Notes: generated by a model from the sequence alone, not told the origin. A DNA stretch of 17,622 nt from an uncultured archaeon (GCA_964549075.1 CAZJUB010000002.1:1-17622); one strand, 5' to 3'. Positions 4,930 through 16,848 are shown, numbered from the stretch's first letter. Numbers and translations are program-made.

Positions 4930-6201
4930 ATGAGTGAAGAAAAATCTCCTGAAAAAAAAGAAGAAAAAATAGTAAGACAGCCTGTTGTTAACATTGGTAC
5001 AATTGGTCATGTAGATAATGGTAAATCTACACTAGTACAAGCGCTCACTGGCAAATTTCCAGACGATCATTCAGAGGAGCTAAAACGAGGTATTTCTATC
5101 CGATTAGGCTATGCTGATACCGATTTCCGTAAATGTCCGAAATGCCCAGAACCAGATGCTTATACAATTGAGAAGATTTGTCCCAAATGTGGAACACCTA
5201 CAGAATTTCTCAGGAGAGTTTCCTTTGTAGATTGCCCCGGACATGAAGTATTAATGGCAACTTTACTCTCTGGTGCAACACTTATGAACGGTGCAATATT
5301 GCTTGTTGCTGCAAATTCAAGATGCCCACAACCGCAAACAAGAGAACATCTTGCAGCAATGGAGATTCTTCAAATTCCAAACATAGTAATCGCTCAAAAT
5401 AAAATTGAATTAGTAACTGAAGAAGAAGCAAAGAGGAATTATGAAGAGATTAAAGCTTTCATCAAGGGAACAATAGCAGAAAATGCACCAATTATCCCGA
5501 TTAGTGCAATGCACAAAGCTAATCTAGATGTTTTAATCTGCGAAATTGAGAAGAATATTCCTACACCTAATTTTGATAAAGAAAGTCCTTTGGAAATGCA
5601 TGTTGCAAGATCATTTGATATAAATCGTCCAGGAACATCACCAGAAAGACTCAGAGGAGGAGCTCTTGGAGGAACAATAGTAAAAGGGAGGATTGCTAAA
5701 GGAGAAGACATAGAAATAGTACCTGGAATTGCAATTAAAAGGGGAAATAAAACCGTTTATACTCCAATCAAAACAAAAGCAATTAGTATAGCTATTGGAG
5801 AACAAGGACTTGTTGATGAAGCTCATTCTGGAGGATTGGTTTCAATAGGAACAGAATTAGATCCTGCATTTTTGAAAGCTGATAAAATGGCTGGTAACGT
5901 GGTTACATCACCAGATAACGCACCTCCAGTCCGAACAGAACTTTCTCTAACTGTCCGTCTTCTGGAATTTGTTGTAGGTTCAGAAGAAATTACGAAAGTA
6001 CAACCTTTAGCTCAAGGAGAAACTCTAATGTTAAATGTTGGAACTGCAAAAACAGCAGGTTCAATAACAGATATCAAAGGAGAAGATGTTACGATTAAGC
6101 TTAGTAGAGAAGTTGCAGCAAGCAATGGGAGTAAAGTAGCAATTTCAAGAAGAATTGCTGGACGCTTTCGTTTAATTGGTGTTGGTTCTATACAAGATTA
6201 G
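4930..6201 (+). CDS. eif2g: Translation initiation factor 2 subunit gamma (aIF2-gamma)
   Basis: QPVVNIGTIGHVDNGKST, HSEELKRGISIRLGY, CPKC..CPKC zinc ribbon, FVDCPGHE, QNKIE, VARSFDINRPG, AISRRIAGRFRLIG. Confidence 0.97.
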   Translation: MSEEKSPEKKEEKIVRQPVVNIGTIGHVDNGKSTLVQALTGKFPDDHSEELKRGISIRLGYADTDFRKCPKCPEPDAYTIEKICPKCGTPTEFLRRVSFVDCPGHEVLMATLLSGATLMNGAILLVAANSRCPQPQTREHLAAMEILQIPNIVIAQNKIELVTEEEAKRNYEEIKAFIKGTIAENAPIIPISAMHKANLDVLICEIEKNIPTPNFDKESPLEMHVARSFDINRPGTSPERLRGGALGGTIVKGRIAKGEDIEIVPGIAIKRGNKTVYTPIKTKAISIAIGEQGLVDEAHSGGLVSIGTELDPAFLKADKMAGNVVTSPDNAPPVRTELSLTVRLLEFVVGSEEITKVQPLAQGETLMLNVGTAKTAGSITDIKGEDVTIKLSREVAASNGSKVAISRRIAGRFRLIGVGSIQD

Positions 6202-6218
6202 ATAATGAGGAGGTTCTA

Positions 6219-6605
6219 ATGCTCATCATTCTTGATACAAGCATGTTAATGCTTCCTCTTGAGAAGAGAATTAATTTATCTTCAGAAATAGAGCGAATCA
6301 TACCTAAATCTCATAAAATCGTTGTTCCCAAAATTGTTTTAAAGGAATTAATTGAACTTCTAGAAAGTTCAAGCAGTGTAACTACAAGAAAAGCGAATTT
6401 TGCTCTTAATCTATCAAAAAATTTTACTATTATAGACTCTCAGGAAGAAATTCATACCGATGAGGAAATTATACGTTTAGCATTGGAACATAATGCTATT
6501 GTAGCGACCAATGATAAGAAACTAAGGTTAAGGCTTAGAGAGAAAGGAATTGCTGTTATTTCCATGCATGGAAAAAACAGATTATCACTTTTCGGATATA
6601 TTTAG
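6219..6605 (+). CDS. PIN-domain ribonuclease, Fcf1/Utp24-like rRNA-processing family
   Basis: IILDTS, VLKEL, TDEEI, VATNDKKLR acidic tetrad. SD GAGGAGG. Usual neighbour of eif2g. Confidence 0.88.
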   Translation: MLIILDTSMLMLPLEKRINLSSEIERIIPKSHKIVVPKIVLKELIELLESSSSVTTRKANFALNLSKNFTIIDSQEEIHTDEEIIRLALEHNAIVATNDKKLRLRLREKGIAVISMHGKNRLSLFGYI

Positions 6606-6701
6606 TGTATACATCATCACATATAGAAAATAATATATGGTTTTGAAATTGAGGTACAATTAACAATCTAATTATCTTGATTGAAAACTTAATGGGGTAA
6701 A

Positions 6702-7268
6702 ATGATGGAGATTATAAGTTTATTTCCAGAACTCAATGAAATTGAGCATGATGAATTACGAGAAAAAGTTGCTAAATCCCTTGAGAAAGCAATAAACTTA
6801 GGGGATTGGTCTGATGAAGACTTCAAATATTTACCAGCTACATTGTTAATTCCCAAATTAATATCAGAAAACCAAGAAGCACAAATTACTTTAGTAGATC
6901 ATATTAGAGCTGTTACTCAAATGTGTATTGCCACCTATGAGACATATTCAAATCTAGGTTTAGGAGATAAGTTAAACAGAGATGAATTAATTGCTGGTGC
7001 TTTGCTTCATGATGTTGGTAAGTTCACAGAATATAGAAAAGATTCATCCGGAAAAATTATTCAAACTTTTGAAGGGAAGCGAATTCGTCATCCAGCTATG
7101 GGATTAGAAATTGTTGCAGAATTTAACCTTCCAATTATTGTAAGACAAGCGATTGTTTTTCACAGTAAAGAAGGTGATAAGATTGATAGATTACCAGAAG
7201 TAGATATAATTCATCGCGTTGATTTCCTTTGCTTTTCCCCCATACAGAAAATGTTTGAAGAAAATTGA
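6702..7268 (+). CDS. HD-superfamily (HDIG-type) metal-dependent phosphohydrolase
   Basis: LVDHIRAV ... GALLHDVGK ... IRHPAMG ... IVFHS ... HRVDF (H..HD..H..H..D). Confidence 0.88.
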   Translation: MMEIISLFPELNEIEHDELREKVAKSLEKAINLGDWSDEDFKYLPATLLIPKLISENQEAQITLVDHIRAVTQMCIATYETYSNLGLGDKLNRDELIAGALLHDVGKFTEYRKDSSGKIIQTFEGKRIRHPAMGLEIVAEFNLPIIVRQAIVFHSKEGDKIDRLPEVDIIHRVDFLCFSPIQKMFEEN

Positions 7269-8501: not shown

Positions 8502-9767
8502 ATGAATGGGTTTACATTTATAGAAAAAATCATCAAATCTCACTCTGATGCCTCTGTAGAAGAAATTTATCCTGGTAATATAGTATGGATAAATTTAGAT
8601 TTAGTGACAGCGAGAGATTATGCAGGTCCTCAAGTTGTAGATTTGTTTCAAAACAACTATCCTGGTTCTAAAGTGTTTGATAATCAAAAAATTATTTTTA
8701 CACCAGATTGTTATCCTTATGGCAATGATCCCAAGCATGCAATAGATCAAGAAAAAATACGTTTTTTTGCAAAAGAGCATAATATTAAAGTTACTGACTT
8801 AGGGTCTGGTATAGGTTCTCATCTTATATTTAGAAGAGGATTTGCAAAACCGGGGGATATTGCTTTTGGTGCTGACAGTCACTATAATATTCTTGGAGCA
8901 CTAGGTATATTGGGTCAAGGTGCTGGAGATGTAATGTTAGCTTTTTCTATGAAAACAGGTAAATCATGGATCAAGATTCCTGAAACAATAAAAGTGAACT
9001 TGAAAGGAAAATATGTTTGGCCCACATCTTCTAAAGATTTGGCACTTTATGTTCTTAAGAAACTACATGAATTTGGTATTACAGGAAAAGCTATAGAATT
9101 TTATGGAGAGATTATTTCCGAATTATCAATAGAAGAGAGAGTAACGCTCTGTTCTCTAATAACTGAAGCATCAGGAATGATTGGGTTTGTTCTTCCTGAC
9201 AAGATAACTAAAGAATATTATGAAAGATTAGGGATTGAAATTGAAATTTTTTCAGCTGATAAAAATGCTAATTATTCAGAGGAAATAACAATTGATATTG
9301 ATAATTTAGGATTATATATTGCATGTCCACCTCACCCTCATAATGTCAAACCTATCGAAGAGGTTTTAGGAACGCCTATAAGCTCAATTGTTGTTGGTTC
9401 ATGCACTAATGGTAGTGCATCAGACATTCATGAAGTAGCAAAAGTTCTTGAAGGTAAGAAAATAAACACTGAGGTTCGATTTGGAATTGTACCTGCTACA
9501 AGAGAAGATTTCATTGATATAAATGCAAATAGAGATATGACAATAATTTTAGAAGCTGGAGGGAATTTTTTTGGTGCTGGTTGTTCAACTTGTGCAAAAG
9601 GACAATATGGCTTAACAGGAGGAGAAACAGCAGTTACTTTAACTACAGGTAATAGAAATACTCAAGGGAAAATAGGTCCAGCAGATGTTTATTTGGCAAG
9701 TCCAGCAGTAGCTGCAGCTACTGCTATAGAAGGTAAGATAGCAAGACCTAGAGTAGGTGAAGAATAG
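8502..9767 (+). CDS. Aconitase-family (LeuC/HacA-like) large subunit, divergent active site
   Basis: GADSH, GSCTNG, GCSTC (three 4Fe-4S Cys), NRN, YLASPAVAAATAIEG. Atypical TARD and TPDC motifs. Confidence 0.9.
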   Translation: MNGFTFIEKIIKSHSDASVEEIYPGNIVWINLDLVTARDYAGPQVVDLFQNNYPGSKVFDNQKIIFTPDCYPYGNDPKHAIDQEKIRFFAKEHNIKVTDLGSGIGSHLIFRRGFAKPGDIAFGADSHYNILGALGILGQGAGDVMLAFSMKTGKSWIKIPETIKVNLKGKYVWPTSSKDLALYVLKKLHEFGITGKAIEFYGEIISELSIEERVTLCSLITEASGMIGFVLPDKITKEYYERLGIEIEIFSADKNANYSEEITIDIDNLGLYIACPPHPHNVKPIEEVLGTPISSIVVGSCTNGSASDIHEVAKVLEGKKINTEVRFGIVPATREDFIDINANRDMTIILEAGGNFFGAGCSTCAKGQYGLTGGETAVTLTTGNRNTQGKIGPADVYLASPAVAAATAIEGKIARPRVGEE

Positions 9768-10273
9768 TGACAGAGGAAATTATAAGAGGCAAAGCTAAAT
9801 TAGTTCGAATCGACGATATTGATACCGACCAAATTTTCCATCAATCTCTATTAACTATACATAAACCTGAAGAGATTAAACCTCATATCTTCGGTAATTT
9901 AGAAGGTTTCGAGAATTTTGGAAAGGAAAATAATTCTAATAAAATTCTAGTAGTTGGAAAGAATTTTGGGAAGGGTTCCACTAGACAACAAGCAGTAACA
10001 GGATTTTTAGCACACAAAATCAAAGCCATTGTCGGAGAATCATTTGGTCCAATATATTATAGCAACGCTGTAAATGAAGGATTACTCCTTATTGAAGTTC
10101 CCAATCTTTCTGGATTTGAAATAGAATCTGACGATGAATTAGAGATTGATATTGGTCAATCTGTTATCTTCAACAAAACCAAAGGTATTAAAATAAAATG
10201 TAATAAAATTCCACAGCCTGTTTTAGATATTATAAATGCTGGAGGTCTATTAAAACTTGGAGGAAAATTTTAA
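9767..10273 (+). CDS. Aconitase-family (LeuD/HacB-like) small subunit
   Basis: DDIDTDQIF, VVGKNFGKGSTRQQA, SFGPIYYSNAVNEGL, IINAGGLL. GTG start overlaps the upstream TAG. SD AGGTGA. Confidence 0.9.
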   Translation: MTEEIIRGKAKLVRIDDIDTDQIFHQSLLTIHKPEEIKPHIFGNLEGFENFGKENNSNKILVVGKNFGKGSTRQQAVTGFLAHKIKAIVGESFGPIYYSNAVNEGLLLIEVPNLSGFEIESDDELEIDIGQSVIFNKTKGIKIKCNKIPQPVLDIINAGGLLKLGGKF

Positions 10274-12151: not shown

Positions 12152-13459
12152 ATGAAATTATATGAATATGAAGCTAAACAGATTTTTGAGAAATTCGGTT
12201 TAATAATCCCTAAGCAATTAGCTATAATTGAAAAAACTGAGGAGATTAATGATTTGGTATTATCGTTTCCTCTAATGATAAAGGCAATGGTATTAATTGG
12301 AGGACGTGGCAAAGCTGGGGGAATTAAGAAAGCTAAAGATTTAGAGGATACTAAGAAAATAGTTGGAGAAATGTTTCAAAGCTCAATCCGTGGTTATCCA
12401 ATTAAAAAGATACTTTTGGAAGAGACTGTAAATATATCAAAAGAAATTTACTTAGCTGTGACAACCGACCCAGCTACATTTGACATAGTCTTAGTTACTT
12501 CTGCAAGTGGAGGAGTGGATATTGAGGAAGTAGCAAAAACTACACCTGAACTTATTTGGAAACAAAAAATCCTTGATAATGCAGAAGAATTAGATGATAT
12601 TACTGCTGAAGAAGCAATCAAATTTCTTTCGAAGAACTTACCAACTGACGAGCATATTACCAATCAACTAAAAGATGCTATAAAAAACCTATATTTAACA
12701 TTTCAAAGTATCGAGGCTAAGATTTGTGAAATTAACCCTTTGATTCTTACTACAAATCATCAGATAGTTGCTGTTGATGCAAAAGTGGTACTTGATGATA
12801 ATAGTTTATACAGACAAGAACCTATGTTGAAATCAATAGGTATTGATCCTCGAAGTAAAAGACACGATGTTTCAGAGCAGACCGTTTATGAAGCAAAAGC
12901 GTACAAAATTGGATTTCCTTACTTAGATTTACTCAAAAATCCTGAGAACTTCAAAAAAGATGAAAGTAAATTATATGTAGCACTTGTACCTGGAGGAGCT
13001 GGATATGGGATTTTCTCAATAGATGAAGTAGTCAATGTGGGTAACAGATTTTTTGATGGAAAAGTAGTTCCCATAAATTTTATGGATAGTGGAGGTGGAC
13101 CATCATTAAGTAAAGTTGCGGATATGTTTCATCTACTAATGGATCACCCTGCTACTGATTTAATCATTACAAGCAGATTTGGAGGTATTTCCAGCTGTGA
13201 TATTTTCATTCGCGGATTAATCATGGCTTTAAGAGACAGATACATGAAAAAACGCAGGATGATCCCAGTTTATGGTAGAATGGTTGGCACTGATTTAGCA
13301 GCAGCAAGAGAATATCTTGAAAAAGCGAAACGAGAAACGCCTGATCCTTTGAAAGATTTACATATTGTTGTAGGAAATCAAAAAATTATGGCAGATGTCA
13401 TCAAAGATAGTATTGAATATGGCTTTAAAATAAAACAGCAGCAGGAGACTGGAGGATAG
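12152..13459 (+). CDS. ATP-grasp acyl-CoA synthetase beta-type subunit (SCS-beta / citryl-CoA synthetase large / ACL-beta-like)
   Basis: MKLYEYEAK, IKAMVLIGGRGKAGGIK, EINPL, DAKVVLDDN, GGAG, PINFMDSGGG, FGGISSCD. Confidence 0.88.
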   Translation: MKLYEYEAKQIFEKFGLIIPKQLAIIEKTEEINDLVLSFPLMIKAMVLIGGRGKAGGIKKAKDLEDTKKIVGEMFQSSIRGYPIKKILLEETVNISKEIYLAVTTDPATFDIVLVTSASGGVDIEEVAKTTPELIWKQKILDNAEELDDITAEEAIKFLSKNLPTDEHITNQLKDAIKNLYLTFQSIEAKICEINPLILTTNHQIVAVDAKVVLDDNSLYRQEPMLKSIGIDPRSKRHDVSEQTVYEAKAYKIGFPYLDLLKNPENFKKDESKLYVALVPGGAGYGIFSIDEVVNVGNRFFDGKVVPINFMDSGGGPSLSKVADMFHLLMDHPATDLIITSRFGGISSCDIFIRGLIMALRDRYMKKRRMIPVYGRMVGTDLAAAREYLEKAKRETPDPLKDLHIVVGNQKIMADVIKDSIEYGFKIKQQQETGG

Positions 13460-13463
13460 TTTC

Positions 13464-15608
13464 ATGACAAGCGTAAAACTTGAAGCAGATAAAGGTTTAC
13501 TCAACTATCTTATAAATCATGTAAGACCAGAATTAGCAGAAAAAATAAACAAATCTAAATCAATTGAAACTATGATTGTTGGATTAGGAAGACAGGGAAC
13601 CAGACACGCTCAGTTGATGATGGAGTATGGTACGAATGTAACTTGTGGTGTAGCACCTGGTAGAGGTGGAACAATGGTTCATGAAACAATACCTGTATAT
13701 AATTCAGCTCATGAAGCTGTAAAAAAACATCCAAACATCGCAGTTGCTAGTATTTGGAGACATTATTCTACTGCCAAGGATGCAACAATTGAAGTTATAA
13801 GAGCAGGTGTTCCAATTGTTGTTCTCATCTCTGAATTCATCCCACTTAAGGATGTAAGAGATATTTTAGTAGAGGCACGAAAACATAACACTATCTTGTT
13901 TGGAGGTAACACTCCTGGAATAATTTTCCCTCCCGAAGGTATAAAGGTTGGTATGCTTCCAGATATTTTTCAAGCACAAATTATGGAAAACGGAGAAACT
14001 GGACCTAATGGCGTCACTATCTTGTCAAGAAGTGGTGCAATATTATATCACATGTCTGATGCACTTGCAAGTGCTGGAATTGCACAAAATGGAGTATTAG
14101 GAATAGGTGGGGACGGTGCTATAGGTTCAAGATTTGTAGATTTAGTTTCATTGGTTATGAAATATTCAAATACAGATTTGGTGGTTGTAGCAGGTGAAAT
14201 CGGAGGAATGCAAGAAGAGCTTCTTGCTCAAGATATGATCGAACATCCAGAGAGGTATTCAAAACCGCTTGTTGCACTCATTTCTGGAGCAAATGCTCCT
14301 GAAGGAAAAACAATGGGACATGCAGGAGCGGTTATAGCTCCAGGACAGATGTATGGTACTTTCAATTCTAAGAAAGAGATATTAGAAAAAGCTGGAGCAA
14401 TCGTTGTAAATCACCAAAACGATTTAATTCAAGCTGTAAAATCCAAACTTAATCGAACATACTTTAAAGTTGAAGATTATTATCAGAGAATGAAAAAGAA
14501 ATGGGACGAAAAACCTCCTGAACCCACTTGGGGAACTCTGATTACCAATGTTATGCCTAATAATTTAATTATTCGAGGATATCCTTTACAGGAAATCATT
14601 GCAAAAAAAGGCTTATTAGAAACAACTTATCTTCTAATTGAAGGTGAATTTCCAAAAGAAAACTTGAAAGAGCTAGAGAAAATAGCTATTGTAGCAGCTA
14701 AAGAACAACTTTCTATTAATTATAAATTCTCAAAAGAGACAGACATTTCAAAATTAATTGGCACATTTCTTTTACTAGATGAGAATTTATCGAACTATGC
14801 TCAGGTAGAAAAAGATCATTCAAAGGTTGCAGTTTATTCTTTAGGTAGGATTCTGAGATATCTTTCAATTTACTTCGGTAACACACAAAAAATAGATACA
14901 CAAGATGAAGAAAAGATAACTTTCTCTGAATTAATATATCTAGGATTGGTTGGAGAAATACCTAGCGATAAAATAAAAATCAAACTTCTTGAAGCTATCA
15001 TTACCGCATGTGTAGACCATGGTGTTACACCTCCATCAACACAGACAACACTAATATTAGCTTCAACTCGCTCAAATTATGAAGTAGCTGTTTCAGCAGG
15101 TATCCAAGCTATAACTGATGTCCATGGTGGGGCAGGTCAAAAAGCAGCTGAATTTATGATTTCAGCAGTTAATAAATCCAGAGAAAATTCCAAGGATTTA
15201 GAAGAGACAACCTTTGAGTTGATGAAAGATACTATCAAAGCAGGAAAACGTGTTGAAGGGCTTGGTCATAGGATTCACACCCAAGATCCTAGAAGAGATG
15301 TTCTTTGGGATTTAGCTGAGAAAGCTGGATATGCAAAAGAATGTGTTGCAGTTTCAAAAGTTATAAGTGATGCGTTTTACAGGGTTAGAGGAATGAACCT
15401 TCCCATAAATGTAGACGGTGTAATTGGAGCGATTATAGCTGATATGGATATAAATCCTAAATTAGCTAAAGCTGTATTTGTCTTTGGAAGAGTTGCTGGA
15501 TTAGCTGCGCATTATTATGAAGAGATTAGTACTCAACCTCAAATGAGAAGAATTGAGTTTAATAATGCAGTCTATAAAGGACCATCTATAAGAGAACTTA
15601 GAGAGTAA
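13464..15608 (+). CDS. Fusion of SCS-alpha-like CoA-ligase domain and citryl-CoA-lyase/citrate-synthase domain (ATP citrate lyase alpha-like architecture)
   Basis: N-half: GRQGTRHAQLMMEYGTNV, SRSGA, GIGGD, GEIGG, phospho-His loop KTMGHAGA. C-half: LIIRGYPL, VDHGVTPPST, HGGAG, GLGHRIHTQDPR, PINVDG, GRVAGLAAH. SD GGAGG. Confidence 0.9.
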   Translation: MTSVKLEADKGLLNYLINHVRPELAEKINKSKSIETMIVGLGRQGTRHAQLMMEYGTNVTCGVAPGRGGTMVHETIPVYNSAHEAVKKHPNIAVASIWRHYSTAKDATIEVIRAGVPIVVLISEFIPLKDVRDILVEARKHNTILFGGNTPGIIFPPEGIKVGMLPDIFQAQIMENGETGPNGVTILSRSGAILYHMSDALASAGIAQNGVLGIGGDGAIGSRFVDLVSLVMKYSNTDLVVVAGEIGGMQEELLAQDMIEHPERYSKPLVALISGANAPEGKTMGHAGAVIAPGQMYGTFNSKKEILEKAGAIVVNHQNDLIQAVKSKLNRTYFKVEDYYQRMKKKWDEKPPEPTWGTLITNVMPNNLIIRGYPLQEIIAKKGLLETTYLLIEGEFPKENLKELEKIAIVAAKEQLSINYKFSKETDISKLIGTFLLLDENLSNYAQVEKDHSKVAVYSLGRILRYLSIYFGNTQKIDTQDEEKITFSELIYLGLVGEIPSDKIKIKLLEAIITACVDHGVTPPSTQTTLILASTRSNYEVAVSAGIQAITDVHGGAGQKAAEFMISAVNKSRENSKDLEETTFELMKDTIKAGKRVEGLGHRIHTQDPRRDVLWDLAEKAGYAKECVAVSKVISDAFYRVRGMNLPINVDGVIGAIIADMDINPKLAKAVFVFGRVAGLAAHYYEEISTQPQMRRIEFNNAVYKGPSIRELRE

Positions 15609-15624
15609 ATATCAATCAATCTCA

Positions 15625-16431
15625 ATGGAGAGAATCATGAAAGATATAATCTATGAGATTATTGGCAATATTCTTATTGTGAGGGATATCGTTGAAGAAT
15701 CAAAACTATTAGAGTTCTCTAAAAAAATGATGAAGAAGTACCCAAGCATTCAAACGGTAGTTATCCAAACTTCCAACGTAAGAGGAGTTGAAAGAACAAG
15801 AGAATTTCAATATTATATGGGAAAGAACACATTTGAAACACTGTATAAAGAGTATGGAAATACATTTCTTGTTAATATATCAACATCTTTTTTCTCACCA
15901 AGATTAAGTTATGAGAGAGAAAGAATCGCTAAAATGGTTAAGAAGGGGGAGATTGTTTTAAATTTCTTTTCCGGAGTTGGACCATTCAGCATATCCATTG
16001 CTACAAAATGTAACAATTGTATTATTCATAGTATAGAAATAAATGAAAATGCATATCATTATCTCCTGAAAAATATAGAACTGAACAAATGTAAAGAAAA
16101 GGTCAAAGCGTATCTAGGAGATGCTTTTGATATTGTACCAAAATTATTTTTTAACAAAGTAGATAGAGTATTGCTCCCTCTTCCTCTTGCAGCAGAACAT
16201 GCTCTTCCTCTAGCTTATCACTCTTTGAAACAAGGAAAGGGCATTATTCACTGGCAAATAACAGAAAAAGTTCATGAAAAAGAAATAACGCTTAAAGAAA
16301 TTAAGCAAAGCATACAAGAAATCTTAGAAAAGAACCATATCGATGCTTCGTTTCATGTTGAGACTCTGAAGAAAATAAGATGGGTAGCTCCAAGAATAGC
16401 TCATAAAGCAATTGACCTAGTTTTTAACTAA
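15625..16431 (+). CDS. Trm5/Taw2 (Met-10+) family class I SAM-dependent tRNA-37 modifying enzyme
   Basis: YEIIGNILI, VRGVERTR, TLYKEYGNTF, FFSPRLSYERERI, FSGVGPFSI, IEINENAY, DRVLLPLP. 268 aa, no N-terminal D1 domain. Trm5 versus Taw2 activity not resolvable. Confidence 0.85.
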   Translation: MERIMKDIIYEIIGNILIVRDIVEESKLLEFSKKMMKKYPSIQTVVIQTSNVRGVERTREFQYYMGKNTFETLYKEYGNTFLVNISTSFFSPRLSYERERIAKMVKKGEIVLNFFSGVGPFSISIATKCNNCIIHSIEINENAYHYLLKNIELNKCKEKVKAYLGDAFDIVPKLFFNKVDRVLLPLPLAAEHALPLAYHSLKQGKGIIHWQITEKVHEKEITLKEIKQSIQEILEKNHIDASFHVETLKKIRWVAPRIAHKAIDLVFN

Positions 16432-16848
16432 TTTGAAATTACTTGCATAATCTGCTATTTTTAATAATTGGGAGTATTTTGTTTCTCCTGTTAGCACAAT
16501 CTCCGTTTTCTTATTTTTATCTAAAATTATGTCAATGAATTTTTCTAAACTCAATAAATTATTTTCGATAAGCAAATCAAAGTTAGCTGCTAGTAACATC
16601 GATTTTTCCGAAAATATAATATTCTTTTTTACTGCATCCAAAATAGCTTTATAATGAGACAAATCATAGATAACAACATCTAGGTTATTTAATAGGGTCA
16701 AATTTGAGAGCCAAGAAAATGAGTCATTTATCAGAATAGCTCGAATCTTTAATGATTGTCCTTTAGCTCTTATTATTGCACCTAAACCAGCTCGAAAAGA
16801 AGAATATCTATCTCCATAGTAATAATGAATAAGAAAAGCTTCATTCAT
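16417..16848 (-). CDS. Degenerate CobO/BtuR cob(I)alamin adenosyltransferase-like protein
   Basis: LIHYYYG..AGLGAIIRAKGQSLKI and TEIVLTG..LLKIADYAS match the CobO termini, but the GxGKGKTT P-loop is replaced by GDRYSSFR. Confidence 0.6.
   Translation of the reverse strand: MNEAFLIHYYYGDRYSSFRAGLGAIIRAKGQSLKIRAILINDSFSWLSNLTLLNNLDVVIYDLSHYKAILDAVKKNIIFSEKSMLLAANFDLLIENNLLSLEKFIDIILDKNKKTEIVLTGETKYSQLLKIADYASNFKLVKN

Follow-up and report, generated by a model that had tools for sequence, protein, structure and literature searches.

ATP citrate lyase (ACL) is a key genomic marker for the reductive tricarboxylic acid (rTCA) cycle and features in the debate on which host genes eukaryotes received from Asgard archaea. 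Canonical ACL is known as the AclB/AclA pair (Chlorobium limicola, PDB 6hxj; Methanothrix, 6hxi/6znw) and as the fused human ACLY, and Hydrogenobacter thermophilus has a citryl-CoA synthetase (CCS), CcsAB (6hxq), together with a separate citryl-CoA lyase (CCL), Ccl (6hxp). Further variants are described in the available portions of three papers, namely a proposed 'type II ACL' of Magnetococcus and of the symbionts of tubeworms (PMC6783814, PMC3522073), and a fusion of ccsB to ccl in Planctomycetes that is called an intermediate between CCS/CCL and type II ACL (PMC5459899). Here we analyze a stretch of 17,622 nucleotides from an uncultured Heimdall-group archaeon (GCA_964549075.1 CAZJUB010000002.1:1-17622; "the window" denotes this whole stretch), in which two adjacent genes, P0001 and P0002, combine the ACL layout with parts that resemble succinyl-CoA synthetase (SCS) and CCL. 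We propose, with moderate confidence, that this pair encodes a non-canonical heteromeric, ATP-coupled citrate/citryl-CoA enzyme that may run in either direction.

Published metabolic reconstructions already include an Asgard 'ACL', identified by KEGG Orthology (KO) number or by homology. In the portions of these sources that were available, the rTCA cycle in Lokiarchaeia is inferred from ACL (10.1101/385732); ACL homologues are reported 'for the first time' in Asgard archaea and Bathyarchaeota, with eukaryotic ACL apart from the Asgard sequences (preprint 10.1101/2022.10.25.513756); eukaryotic ACLA/B and ACLY are placed, on the basis of KO numbers, beside DPANN and Thermoplasmatota-E3 and not beside Asgard (PMC11976288); and only a Methanosarcinales SucD-citrate-synthase fusion is mentioned as ACL (PMC11237513). 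Our searches of open papers found no description or assay of the 712-residue architecture of SCS-like ligase and long lyase reported here, and Supplemental Table 1 of 10.1101/2022.10.25.513756 may list such genes.

Results

A gene pair with the layout of AclB/AclA

The window is archaeal, with about 33% G+C, and encodes aIF2-gamma, ribosomal protein S24e, RpoE', a GTP-dependent dephospho-CoA kinase and a Trm5/Taw-type methyltransferase (Pfam, NCBIfam). Two open reading frames (ORFs) on the same strand, with 4 bases between them, fill positions 12152-15608 exactly (Table 1). The upstream ORF encodes an ATP-grasp beta subunit, P0001, and the downstream one, P0002, an alpha subunit fused to a lyase domain of the citrate-synthase fold, which is the gene and domain order of AclB/AclA. 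A preliminary description of this stretch had proposed just this layout, and the ORFs and Pfam domains bear it out; the motifs that it had named are likewise all present, both in the beta subunit (VPGGAGYG, PINFMDSGGG, SRFGGISSCD) and in the alpha fusion (HGGA, NVDG). With its long ORFs and hundreds of conserved full-length relatives, the pair lies far beyond what chance would produce. It is a real and conserved gene pair, with a predicted set of catalytic residues that is complete.

Both ligase parts are closest to succinyl-CoA synthetase

P0001 matches Pfam ATP-grasp_2 (157.4 bits) and Ligase_CoA (26.8 bits). In a single-sequence search of the PDB its best match was the SCS beta chain 3ufx_B (158.9 bits, residues 1-390), as compared to 82.8 bits for CcsA and 46.2 bits for Chlorobium AclB, the latter over residues 2-222 only. 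A profile built from 61 relatives matched SCS beta chains over their full length (156-210 bits), but CcsA at positions 1-218 only (104.6 bits), Chlorobium AclB at positions 2-223 only (74.9 bits) and Methanothrix ACLY-A in the ATP-grasp domain only (26.2 bits). Since the matches to CcsA and AclB stop by position 223, the presumed acid-holding half of the protein is recognisably related to SCS only. The predicted structure of P0001 (predicted local distance difference test score, pLDDT, 87.6) gave the same order in Foldseek, with SCS beta chains first (E 1e-36 to 1e-27), then CcsA (3e-26) and ACL (3e-20 and weaker).

The ACL citrate-binding region, which the beta subunit had been said to lack, was examined at the domain level, and PF16114 (Citrate_bind) was indeed found in none of the 61 beta relatives, P0001 included, at E <= 0.01. 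The ACL ATP-grasp family PF24948 gave sub-threshold matches in all 61, the best of them P0001 itself (58.6 bits against a cut-off of 83), and the precomputed Pfam column also assigns PF24948 to beta relatives. On the SucC models of NCBIfam the protein also stays below the cut-offs (NF001913, 240.9 against 370; TIGR01016, 235 against 375.55).

Four motifs of the C-terminal half, which we take from SCS and ACLY structures to be loops placed around the acid-binding site, are invariant in an alignment of 116 relatives (54-96% identical to P0001) with E. coli SucC, and the invariant columns of a second alignment of 61 sequences (A2) agree. VPGGAGYG stands in the place of VNGAGLAM of SucC, PINFMDSGGG in that of PANFLDVGGG, SRFGGISSCD in that of NIFGGIVRCD, and GRMVGT in that of VRLEGN; the two strings previously quoted for SCS, PANFLDVGGG and NIFGGIVRCD, are the exact E. 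coli SucC sequence. The characterization of the beta motifs as SCS-like and not ACL-like is in line with the top rank of SCS by sequence, profile and fold, and all four pocket motifs nonetheless differ from SucC. The ATP-grasp residues in the K44/GGRGKAGG and EINPL segments are conserved in both alignments. Within the pocket loops, Arg342 and Tyr285 are candidate holders of the extra carboxylate and the hydroxyl of citrate. It had been suggested that the arginine before FGG and the VPGGAGYG loop set a different carboxylate substrate; both are invariant and fit a remodelled acid pocket, but no evidence points to another acid, and the lyase residues for oxaloacetate/citrate are conserved (see below).

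The N-terminal part of P0002 matches Pfam CoA_binding, Ligase_CoA and Succ_CoA_lig (residues 35-326). Its best match in the single-sequence search was the SCS alpha chain 2yv2_A (181 bits), with CcsB at 108.7 and Chlorobium AclA at 101.7 bits. The profile search of the PDB (81 relatives) placed SCS alpha chains at 166-235.5 bits, AclA at 141.2 bits summed over two domains, and CcsB at 132.6 bits, below every SCS alpha chain; in Foldseek the alpha domain aligned to SCS alpha with a template modelling (TM) score of 0.91 and a root-mean-square deviation (rmsd) of 1.8-2.0. Because the profile of the alpha part ranks SucD above CcsB, P0002 is better described as a SucD-like::lyase fusion than as the CcsB-Ccl fusion proposed in the preliminary description. 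Here too the scores remain below the NCBIfam cut-offs for SucD (NF004230, 212.5 against 336; TIGR01019, 216.8 against 353.2).

Residue conservation was scored in 119 full-length P0002 relatives, 59-85% identical. H286 (codon 14319-14321, in MGHAGA) and E245 (in GEIGG), which align to the histidine of GHAGA and the glutamate of GEIGG in E. coli SucD, are kept in 119/119. A conserved linker joins the ligase and lyase parts (Table 1). When the model of the whole of P0002 (pLDDT 87.4, predicted TM-score, pTM, 0.57) was searched with Foldseek, the top matches were ACL alpha subunits (6hxj, 6hxi/6znw and human ACLY), aligned through both domains over about 725-740 columns (E ~1e-24).

The lyase domain has a CCL-like core and the length of citrate synthase

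The C-terminal domain of P0002 matches Pfam Citrate_synt (PF00285) at 135.3 bits, with residues 360-692 covering hidden Markov model (HMM) positions 12-352 of 357. Residues 340-714, searched alone against the PDB, matched Hydrogenobacter CCL 6hxp at 129.9 bits (150.4 bits in the profile search), the best citrate synthase at 64.9, the ACL lyase module at 37.4 and human ACLY at about 26 bits. The citryl-CoA lyase models of NCBIfam all scored below their cut-offs (NF004866, 214.9 against 245; NF004869, 206.4 against 212; NF004864, 172.5 against 261), each matching in two stretches, and the citrate-synthase models gave no more than 97 bits against cut-offs of 330-620 (best TIGR01800, 97.4 against 421.3). 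The motif NVDG (residues 649-652), previously assigned to the ACL/CCL type, occurs also in Ccl 6hxp, whereas citrate synthases have NVDF; HGGA (residues 554-557), which had been called citrate-synthase-like, is not specific, CCL 6hxp having HGGA at the aligned place.

For the active site we relied on the list of eight residues of E. coli citrate synthase in the available text of PMC13147460. Seven of the eight, GltA H229, H264, H305, R314, D362, F383 and R387, align to H519, H554, H602, R610, D651, F672 and R676 of P0002, and these seven are kept in 119/119 relatives. In citrate synthase, the arginine and histidine residues among them hold oxaloacetate/citrate.

The alignment of CCL 6hxp to this domain falls into two pieces (residues 16-61 and 146-373 of the domain query) and skips about 85 residues, corresponding to P0002 400-485, whereas the alignment of citrate synthases runs across them without a break. 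The model shows this stretch as helices with pLDDT 88-97. Residues 355-500 alone match Pfam Citrate_synt positions 12-118 (E 5.4e-7), and the 86 residues 400-485 alone gave no match to Pfam. The earlier assignment of a Ccl-type lyase therefore applies to the core, which is nearest to CCL 6hxp, but this is not a plain CCL, being of citrate-synthase length with about 85 extra residues.

A motif of the form 'xxE/TxxYLxLxGExP' occurs twice in the lyase domain, at P0002 residues 384-398 (14613-14657; LLETTYLLIEGEFP) and 486-500 (14919-14963; ITFSELIYLGLVGEIP). The single N-terminal copy of this motif in CCL 6hxp aligns to both P0002 copies, and both copies are also found in citrate synthases. Such a doubled motif would be expected if short CCLs had lost the segment between the copies, or if the long forms had gained an insertion.

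A large family in Asgard archaea and other phyla

At E <= 0.001, 565 relatives of P0002 were found among the 7999 candidates scored. Nearly all of the best 120 of these 565 are 696-724 aa long. Their source names comprise Heimdall-, Kari-, Hod-, Sif-, Borr-, Odin-, Hermod- and Loki-group archaea (Promethearchaeota), 'Euryarchaeota', Thermoplasmata and one Bipolaricaulia bacterium, and they are annotated as 'succinyl-CoA synthetase alpha subunit' or as 'citrate/2-methylcitrate synthase', the latter a name given by the Prokaryotic Genome Annotation Pipeline (PGAP). P0002 adjoins 712-aa clusters in the ESM Atlas, whose commonest phyla are Aminicenantota and Bathyarchaeota. Among the matches listed for the beta subunit the same source names recur, with one Thorarchaeota record in addition, and several beta and alpha relatives stand on contigs of equal size (e.g. 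17265, 58840, 18962 and 399977 bases) in Odin-, Hod- and Loki-group and other Heimdall records. The pair is therefore not rare, and belongs to a large family in Asgard archaea and other phyla. Uncultured archaea and bacteria carry this predicted enzyme family widely, under inconsistent annotations.

Searching 1.84 billion representatives with the lyase domain retrieved 2106 proteins at E <= 0.001, of which 59 had E <= 1e-30. The best 150 of the 2106 include standalone proteins of 345-380 aa that are 36-49% identical over their full length, short CCLs of 240-280 aa (30-39% identical), and two fusions of SucD to a short CCL, P0152 (575 aa) and P0222 (555 aa), from Planctomycetota and Verrucomicrobiota clusters. 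The standalone long forms carry the source names Thermoplasmata, Proteinoplasmatales, Myxococcota, Planctomycetota, Aminicenantales and Deltaproteobacteria; some of them may have arisen from split gene calls or from incomplete records (P0343, for one, is labelled partial).

A quick maximum-likelihood tree of the lyase domain was computed from 79 rows hand-picked from these listings, most matches being left out. The long forms comprised 15 fused, 20 standalone and 2 N-extended sequences; the other rows were 36 short CCLs, 2 short fusions, 1 other, and an outgroup of 3 citrate synthases. All 37 long forms group in one clade, with a support of 99 in the Shimodaira-Hasegawa-like approximate likelihood-ratio test (SH-aLRT), and a branch with 100 SH-aLRT separates this clade, together with the CCLs, from the three citrate synthases. 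Within the clade, fused long forms are intermixed with standalone ones. Resolution is lacking in this tree at the base of the CCL radiation, such that the long clade may be its first branch, as an intermediate toward citrate synthase, or may be nested among the short CCLs. The approximately unbiased (AU) test rejects a tree in which all fused rows form one clade (p 1e-39), a result that mostly reflects the standalone forms among the fused ones and concerns a group named after the tree had been seen.

P0152 and P0222 sit among the short CCLs in the free tree, and their alpha domains are 33-36% identical to those of the P0002 family, no closer than to SucD. A separate origin of the long and the short fusions was considered and set aside, the AU test retaining a tree that joins the long clade with the short fusions (difference in log-likelihood 17.2, p 0.349).

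In a tblastn search of plasmids, only sucD, prpC/citrate synthase and short citryl-CoA lyase genes were seen among the best 40 of 373 records. A short annotated citryl-CoA lyase on an Agrobacterium vitis plasmid (NZ_CP056049.1; locus L031, 2688-5613), is 36.8% identical to the P0002 lyase core; it is flanked by a CoA transferase and a gene of the isocitrate-lyase/phosphoenolpyruvate-mutase family, and adjoins genes for a tripartite tricarboxylate transporter. This context suggests that CCL modules pair with different CoA-activating enzymes across lineages. The ESM Atlas also holds clusters of about 900 aa from Pseudomonadota with Succ_CoA_lig and CoA_binding, in which Citrate_synt is present in 20% of members; it is conceivable that these clusters represent the 'type II ACL' proposed for Magnetococcus and symbionts.

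Gene neighbourhood

Directly upstream of the pair lie three further metabolic units on the same strand, a dehydrogenase gene, a split aconitase-family pair and a fused aconitase-family gene (Table 1). The dehydrogenase scores best on AksF2, the methanogen homoisocitrate dehydrogenase (331 bits against a cut-off of 540), and several models match it in two stretches, suggesting an insertion; its substrate could be isocitrate, homoisocitrate or isopropylmalate. The two genes of the split pair overlap by one base at their stop and start. In architecture the fused protein resembles the fused 'aconitate hydratase' models PRK07229 and TIGR01342, and it scores below their cut-offs. The split and fused hydratases are paralogues, side by side and about 29-33% identical (tblastn against related loci), of which only the fused one passes an NCBIfam cut-off. 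A reading of the specificity loop of the neighbouring small hydratase subunits was dropped, as no recognisable motif of the YLRT/YLVM type was present. With Pfam and NCBIfam, no LeuA/AksA-type condensing enzyme was found in the cluster.

Of the 25 loci that a genome scan yielded, 24 belong to the family, and all come from close Heimdall-group relatives (70-85% identity). The order of dehydrogenase, split aconitase-family pair, fused aconitase-family protein and beta subunit is kept in 23/24 loci, the 24th contig starting inside the cluster. Beta is followed by the alpha::lyase gene in all 24; 22 copies of the latter are complete, and 2 are truncated where the contig ends. Since the housekeeping flanks are syntenic too, the synteny reflects vertical conservation and not functional linkage. 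Extra gltA, sucC or sucD paralogues were absent from the window and from the flanks of the 25 loci, which bears on those stretches only.

Table 1. Coordinates of the gene pair, its parts and the neighbouring metabolic genes in the window
Feature	Position	Strand	Details	Basis
P0001, SucC-like beta subunit, 435 aa	12152..13459	+	ATP-grasp domain ~1-225; CoA-ligase-type C-terminal domain ~226-395; C-terminal helix 413-432	ORF, Pfam, PDB search, model
Beta pocket motifs	12986..13291	+	VPGGAGYG 279-286; PINFMDSGGG 307-316; TSRFGGISSCD 340-350 (SRFGGISSCD 341-350); GRMVGT 375-380	
P0002, alpha::lyase fusion, 714 aa	13464..15608	+		ORF, Pfam, NCBIfam, PDB search, model
P0002 SucD-like CoA-binding and phospho-histidine domains	13572..14450	+	residues 37-329	Pfam, PDB, Foldseek
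P0002 conserved linker	14451..14540	+	residues 330-359; invariant Y333, F334, Y339, W347, W356; helix 336-348	alignment A1, model
P0002 citrate-synthase-fold lyase domain, ~355 aa	14541..15605	+	residues 360-714; CCL-like core, citrate-synthase length	
P0002 helical stretch	14661..14918	+	residues ~400-485; shared with citrate synthases and the long clade, absent from short CCLs	
Isocitrate/homoisocitrate/isopropylmalate-dehydrogenase-family protein, 378 aa	7284..8420	+	Iso_dh 305 bits; all NCBIfam models below cut-off	Pfam, NCBIfam
Split aconitase-family pair	8502..10273	+	large 8502-9767, small 9767-10273; HacA/LeuC-like and LeuD-like, below cut-offs	NCBIfam
Fused aconitase-family protein (large and small domains), 617 aa	10286..12139	+	NF001614, 493.7 bits against cut-off 385	NCBIfam

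Directly upstream of the metabolic cluster and on the same strand stand genes for aIF2-gamma, a PIN_9-domain protein and an HD/HDIG-domain protein (4930-7268), with gaps of 15-97 bases, in an order that is kept in most related loci. Elsewhere in the window, the sole match of a 254-aa ORF (675-1439) is to the C-terminal TNB domain of TnpB/Cas12f-like RNA-guided nucleases (Pfam, 34.6 bits; NCBIfam guided_TnpB at positions 331-388 of 389), and the ORF is probably a truncated or divergent transposon-associated gene. For another ORF of 143 aa (16417-16848, minus strand), the match to the ATP:corrinoid adenosyltransferase CobA/CobO/BtuR family is confined to the C-terminal half (positions 80-157 of 172); this short or truncated homologue is kept in related loci at 30-57% identity.

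Discussion

By NCBIfam and Pfam cut-offs and by the ranks of scores, the gene pair falls outside canonical ACL, SCS, CCS/CCL and citrate synthase alike. It has the layout and probably the chemistry of ACL, apparently assembled from an SCS-type ligase and a CCL-type lyase of citrate-synthase length. In the mechanism that we propose, the SucC-like beta subunit would bind ATP in its ATP-grasp domain and hand the phosphoryl group on to His286, which is carried by the swinging loop of the SucD-like alpha part. From this loop it would be transferred to a tricarboxylic acid, most likely citrate, in the remodelled beta pocket at the alpha/beta interface, and attack of CoA on the acyl phosphate would give citryl-CoA, which the fused citrate-synthase-fold domain would split into acetyl-CoA and oxaloacetate. 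Run in reverse, the enzyme would form citrate and capture the energy of the thioester in ATP, and with the adjacent aconitase-family and isocitrate-dehydrogenase-like genes it may constitute a citrate-to-2-oxoglutarate module that could be used both ways. A table in the available text of PMC13147460 gives -8.0 kJ/mol for the ACL reaction, which is near equilibrium, so that either direction should be feasible and be set by metabolite levels. ATP-forming citrate synthesis, if it takes place, would be a useful energy saving for anaerobes. Desulfobacter runs ACL in the citrate-forming direction.

Several points weigh against an ATP-coupled citrate/citryl-CoA enzyme. The choice of citrate as substrate is made from sequence, and in the profile search the presumed acid-binding C-terminal domain of the beta subunit had no detectable match to the citrate-binding parts of CcsA and AclB, the matches to these being confined to the ATP-grasp domain (1-223). 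Two residues that we take to bind citrate in ACLY, the threonine of ANFT and the second arginine of VRRGG, are both methionine in the beta subunit. In the lyase domain the eighth active-site residue, R407, aligns to an invariant phenylalanine, F699, in a tail whose alignment is uncertain and which is poorly modelled; an invariant R695 lies four residues before it. The two domains of the P0002 model do not superpose on the ACL arrangement (TM 0.34-0.43, rmsd 22-25 A, pTM 0.57). As to the neighbourhood, synteny among relatives of 70-85% identity is weak functional evidence, and the dehydrogenase and split hydratase, which score best on homoisocitrate and homoaconitate/isopropylmalate models, may serve another pathway.

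Some of these points would suit the same machinery acting on another acid, such as homocitrate, 2-methylcitrate, citramalate, malate or isocitrate, with the lyase domain cleaving or forming the corresponding acyl-CoA and the homoaconitase- and homoisocitrate-dehydrogenase-like neighbours joining it in 2-oxoacid chain elongation or a related pathway. Pocket motifs that differ from SCS, an ACL citrate-binding domain that is undetected (PF16114 in 0/61, CcsA/AclB profile matches ending at 223) and neighbours that match AksF2 (331 bits), HacA-family and HacB/LeuD models best are all compatible with this, and we count the absence of a LeuA/AksA-type condensing enzyme from the cluster on the same side. 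We nevertheless think it unlikely, since all 7 confidently mapped citrate-synthase active-site residues are invariant, the closest characterized relative of the lyase is a citryl-CoA lyase, the adjoining fused aconitase-family protein passes its NCBIfam cut-off, and every homo(iso)citrate model matched by the neighbours stays below its own. It is also possible to see in the pair two separate enzymes on one chain, a true SCS whose alpha subunit is merely fused to an autonomous citrate synthase or CCL, with no shared intermediate. Sequence, profile and fold searches all rank SCS first for both ligase parts, the sources call relatives 'succinyl-CoA synthetase' and 'citrate/2-methylcitrate synthase', and standalone lyase forms are common and interleaved with the fused ones in the tree. 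This arrangement seems quite unlikely to us, as the ligase parts fall more than 100 bits short of the SucC/SucD equivalog cut-offs and their invariant pocket motifs are not those of SCS. In addition, the five invariant aromatic residues of the linker argue for a fixed, functional junction, ACLs, the only known enzymes with such a fusion, pass an acyl-CoA between their halves, and CCL, an enzyme that leaves the thioester unhydrolysed, is a closer relative of the lyase domain than citrate synthase is.

An ordinary, merely divergent-looking member of canonical (type I) AclA/AclB would share the gene order and domain order, would explain why ACL alpha chains are the top Foldseek matches of the fusion protein, and would agree with the sub-threshold PF24948 matches in 61/61 beta relatives and their listing in the precomputed Pfam column. 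Every other measure speaks for a different affiliation: SCS at 156-210 bits over the full length of the beta profile against 74.9 for AclB and 26.2 for ACLY-A in the ATP-grasp domain only, SCS at 166-235.5 bits for the alpha profile against 141.2 for AclA over two domains, CCL at 129.9 bits for the lyase against 37.4 for the ACL module, PF16114 in none of 61 relatives, PF24948 at best at 58.6 against 83, and a P0002 chain about 100 aa longer than the solved AclA chains. We regard membership in the canonical family as very improbable. Since the pair is SCS-like on every measure run (PDB sequence and profile searches, fold, Pfam/NCBIfam), nesting of both subunits inside canonical AclA/AclB appears very unlikely; the 'independent lineage' reading draws on similarity ranks, the trees computed here being without AclAB and CcsAB.

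A bolder form of the ATP-coupled citrate enzyme hypothesis, which we put forward tentatively and consider fairly unlikely as a whole, is that the 'ACL' of Asgard archaea and several other uncultured phyla would be a separate recruitment of SCS to citrate that does not descend with canonical and eukaryotic ACL, that its lyase would be a surviving intermediate between CCL and citrate synthase, and that it would work mainly in the citrate-forming direction, as an ATP-conserving entry into a TCA branch. A separate SCS-derived family of this kind would account for the grouping of eukaryotic ACL apart from Asgard sequences. If genes called 'ACL', 'SCS' and 'citrate synthase' in Asgard archaea belonged to such a family, pathway calls made by KO number or product name would need to be re-checked, namely those of rTCA, of a 'complete TCA' and of SCS presence in Asgard archaea, Bathyarchaeota, Thermoplasmata and Aminicenantota. 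Verschueren et al., in 2019, are said to have proposed that citrate synthase derives from a citryl-CoA lyase module, and a CCL-like lyase of citrate-synthase length bears on this proposed origin.

Comparison with known systems

Among the known enzymes, canonical ACL shares with the window pair the gene and domain order, the top whole-chain fold match and presumably the chemistry, by way of a phospho-enzyme and citryl-CoA. Its sequence kinship to the pair is far weaker than that of SCS, its citrate-binding domain PF16114 is found in 0/61 beta relatives, and its domain arrangement does not superpose on that of the P0002 model. The window lyase domain keeps the histidine of HGGA and, being of citrate-synthase length, exceeds that of ACL by about 85-100 aa; the solved AclA chains measure 617-631 aa. 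SucCD is the best match of both ligase parts in sequence, profile and fold, and has the catalytic histidine and glutamate as well as the ATP-grasp residues in common with them. Unlike SucCD, the window proteins score below the SucC/SucD cut-offs and differ in the four pocket motifs; moreover, the beta subunit is 435 aa long as compared to 388 aa for SucC, owing to insertions and a C-terminal extension, and the alpha subunit has a 36-residue N-terminal extension in addition to the fused lyase domain.

Ccl of H. thermophilus is the nearest relative of the lyase core and shares NVDG and HGGA with it, and the two-step chemistry of CcsAB and Ccl is presumably the same as that of the window pair. 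The window lyase is fused, whereas Ccl is separate; the window ligase is nearer to SCS, with CcsA matching the ATP-grasp half only; and the extra citrate-synthase-like helical stretch brings the lyase to about 355 aa, as opposed to about 260 aa in Ccl. Citrate synthase (GltA/CitZ) and 2-methylcitrate synthase have in common with the window lyase the full length, PF00285 and 7/8 active-site residues, but the window lyase has NVDG and not NVDF, groups with CCLs, is fused to a CoA ligase subunit, and stays below the NCBIfam citrate-synthase cut-offs. The proposed 'type II ACL' (Mmc1_3638/3639 of Magnetococcus, and the tubeworm symbionts) and the Planctomycetes ccsB-ccl fusion, which we liken to the window pair by description only, are also predicted to cleave citrate and are also unlike canonical ACL; the literature presents them as intermediates between CCS/CCL and ACL, and in some of them ccsB is fused to ccl. 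The P0152 and P0222 fusions differ from the window family in their short lyase domain, which places them among the short CCLs.

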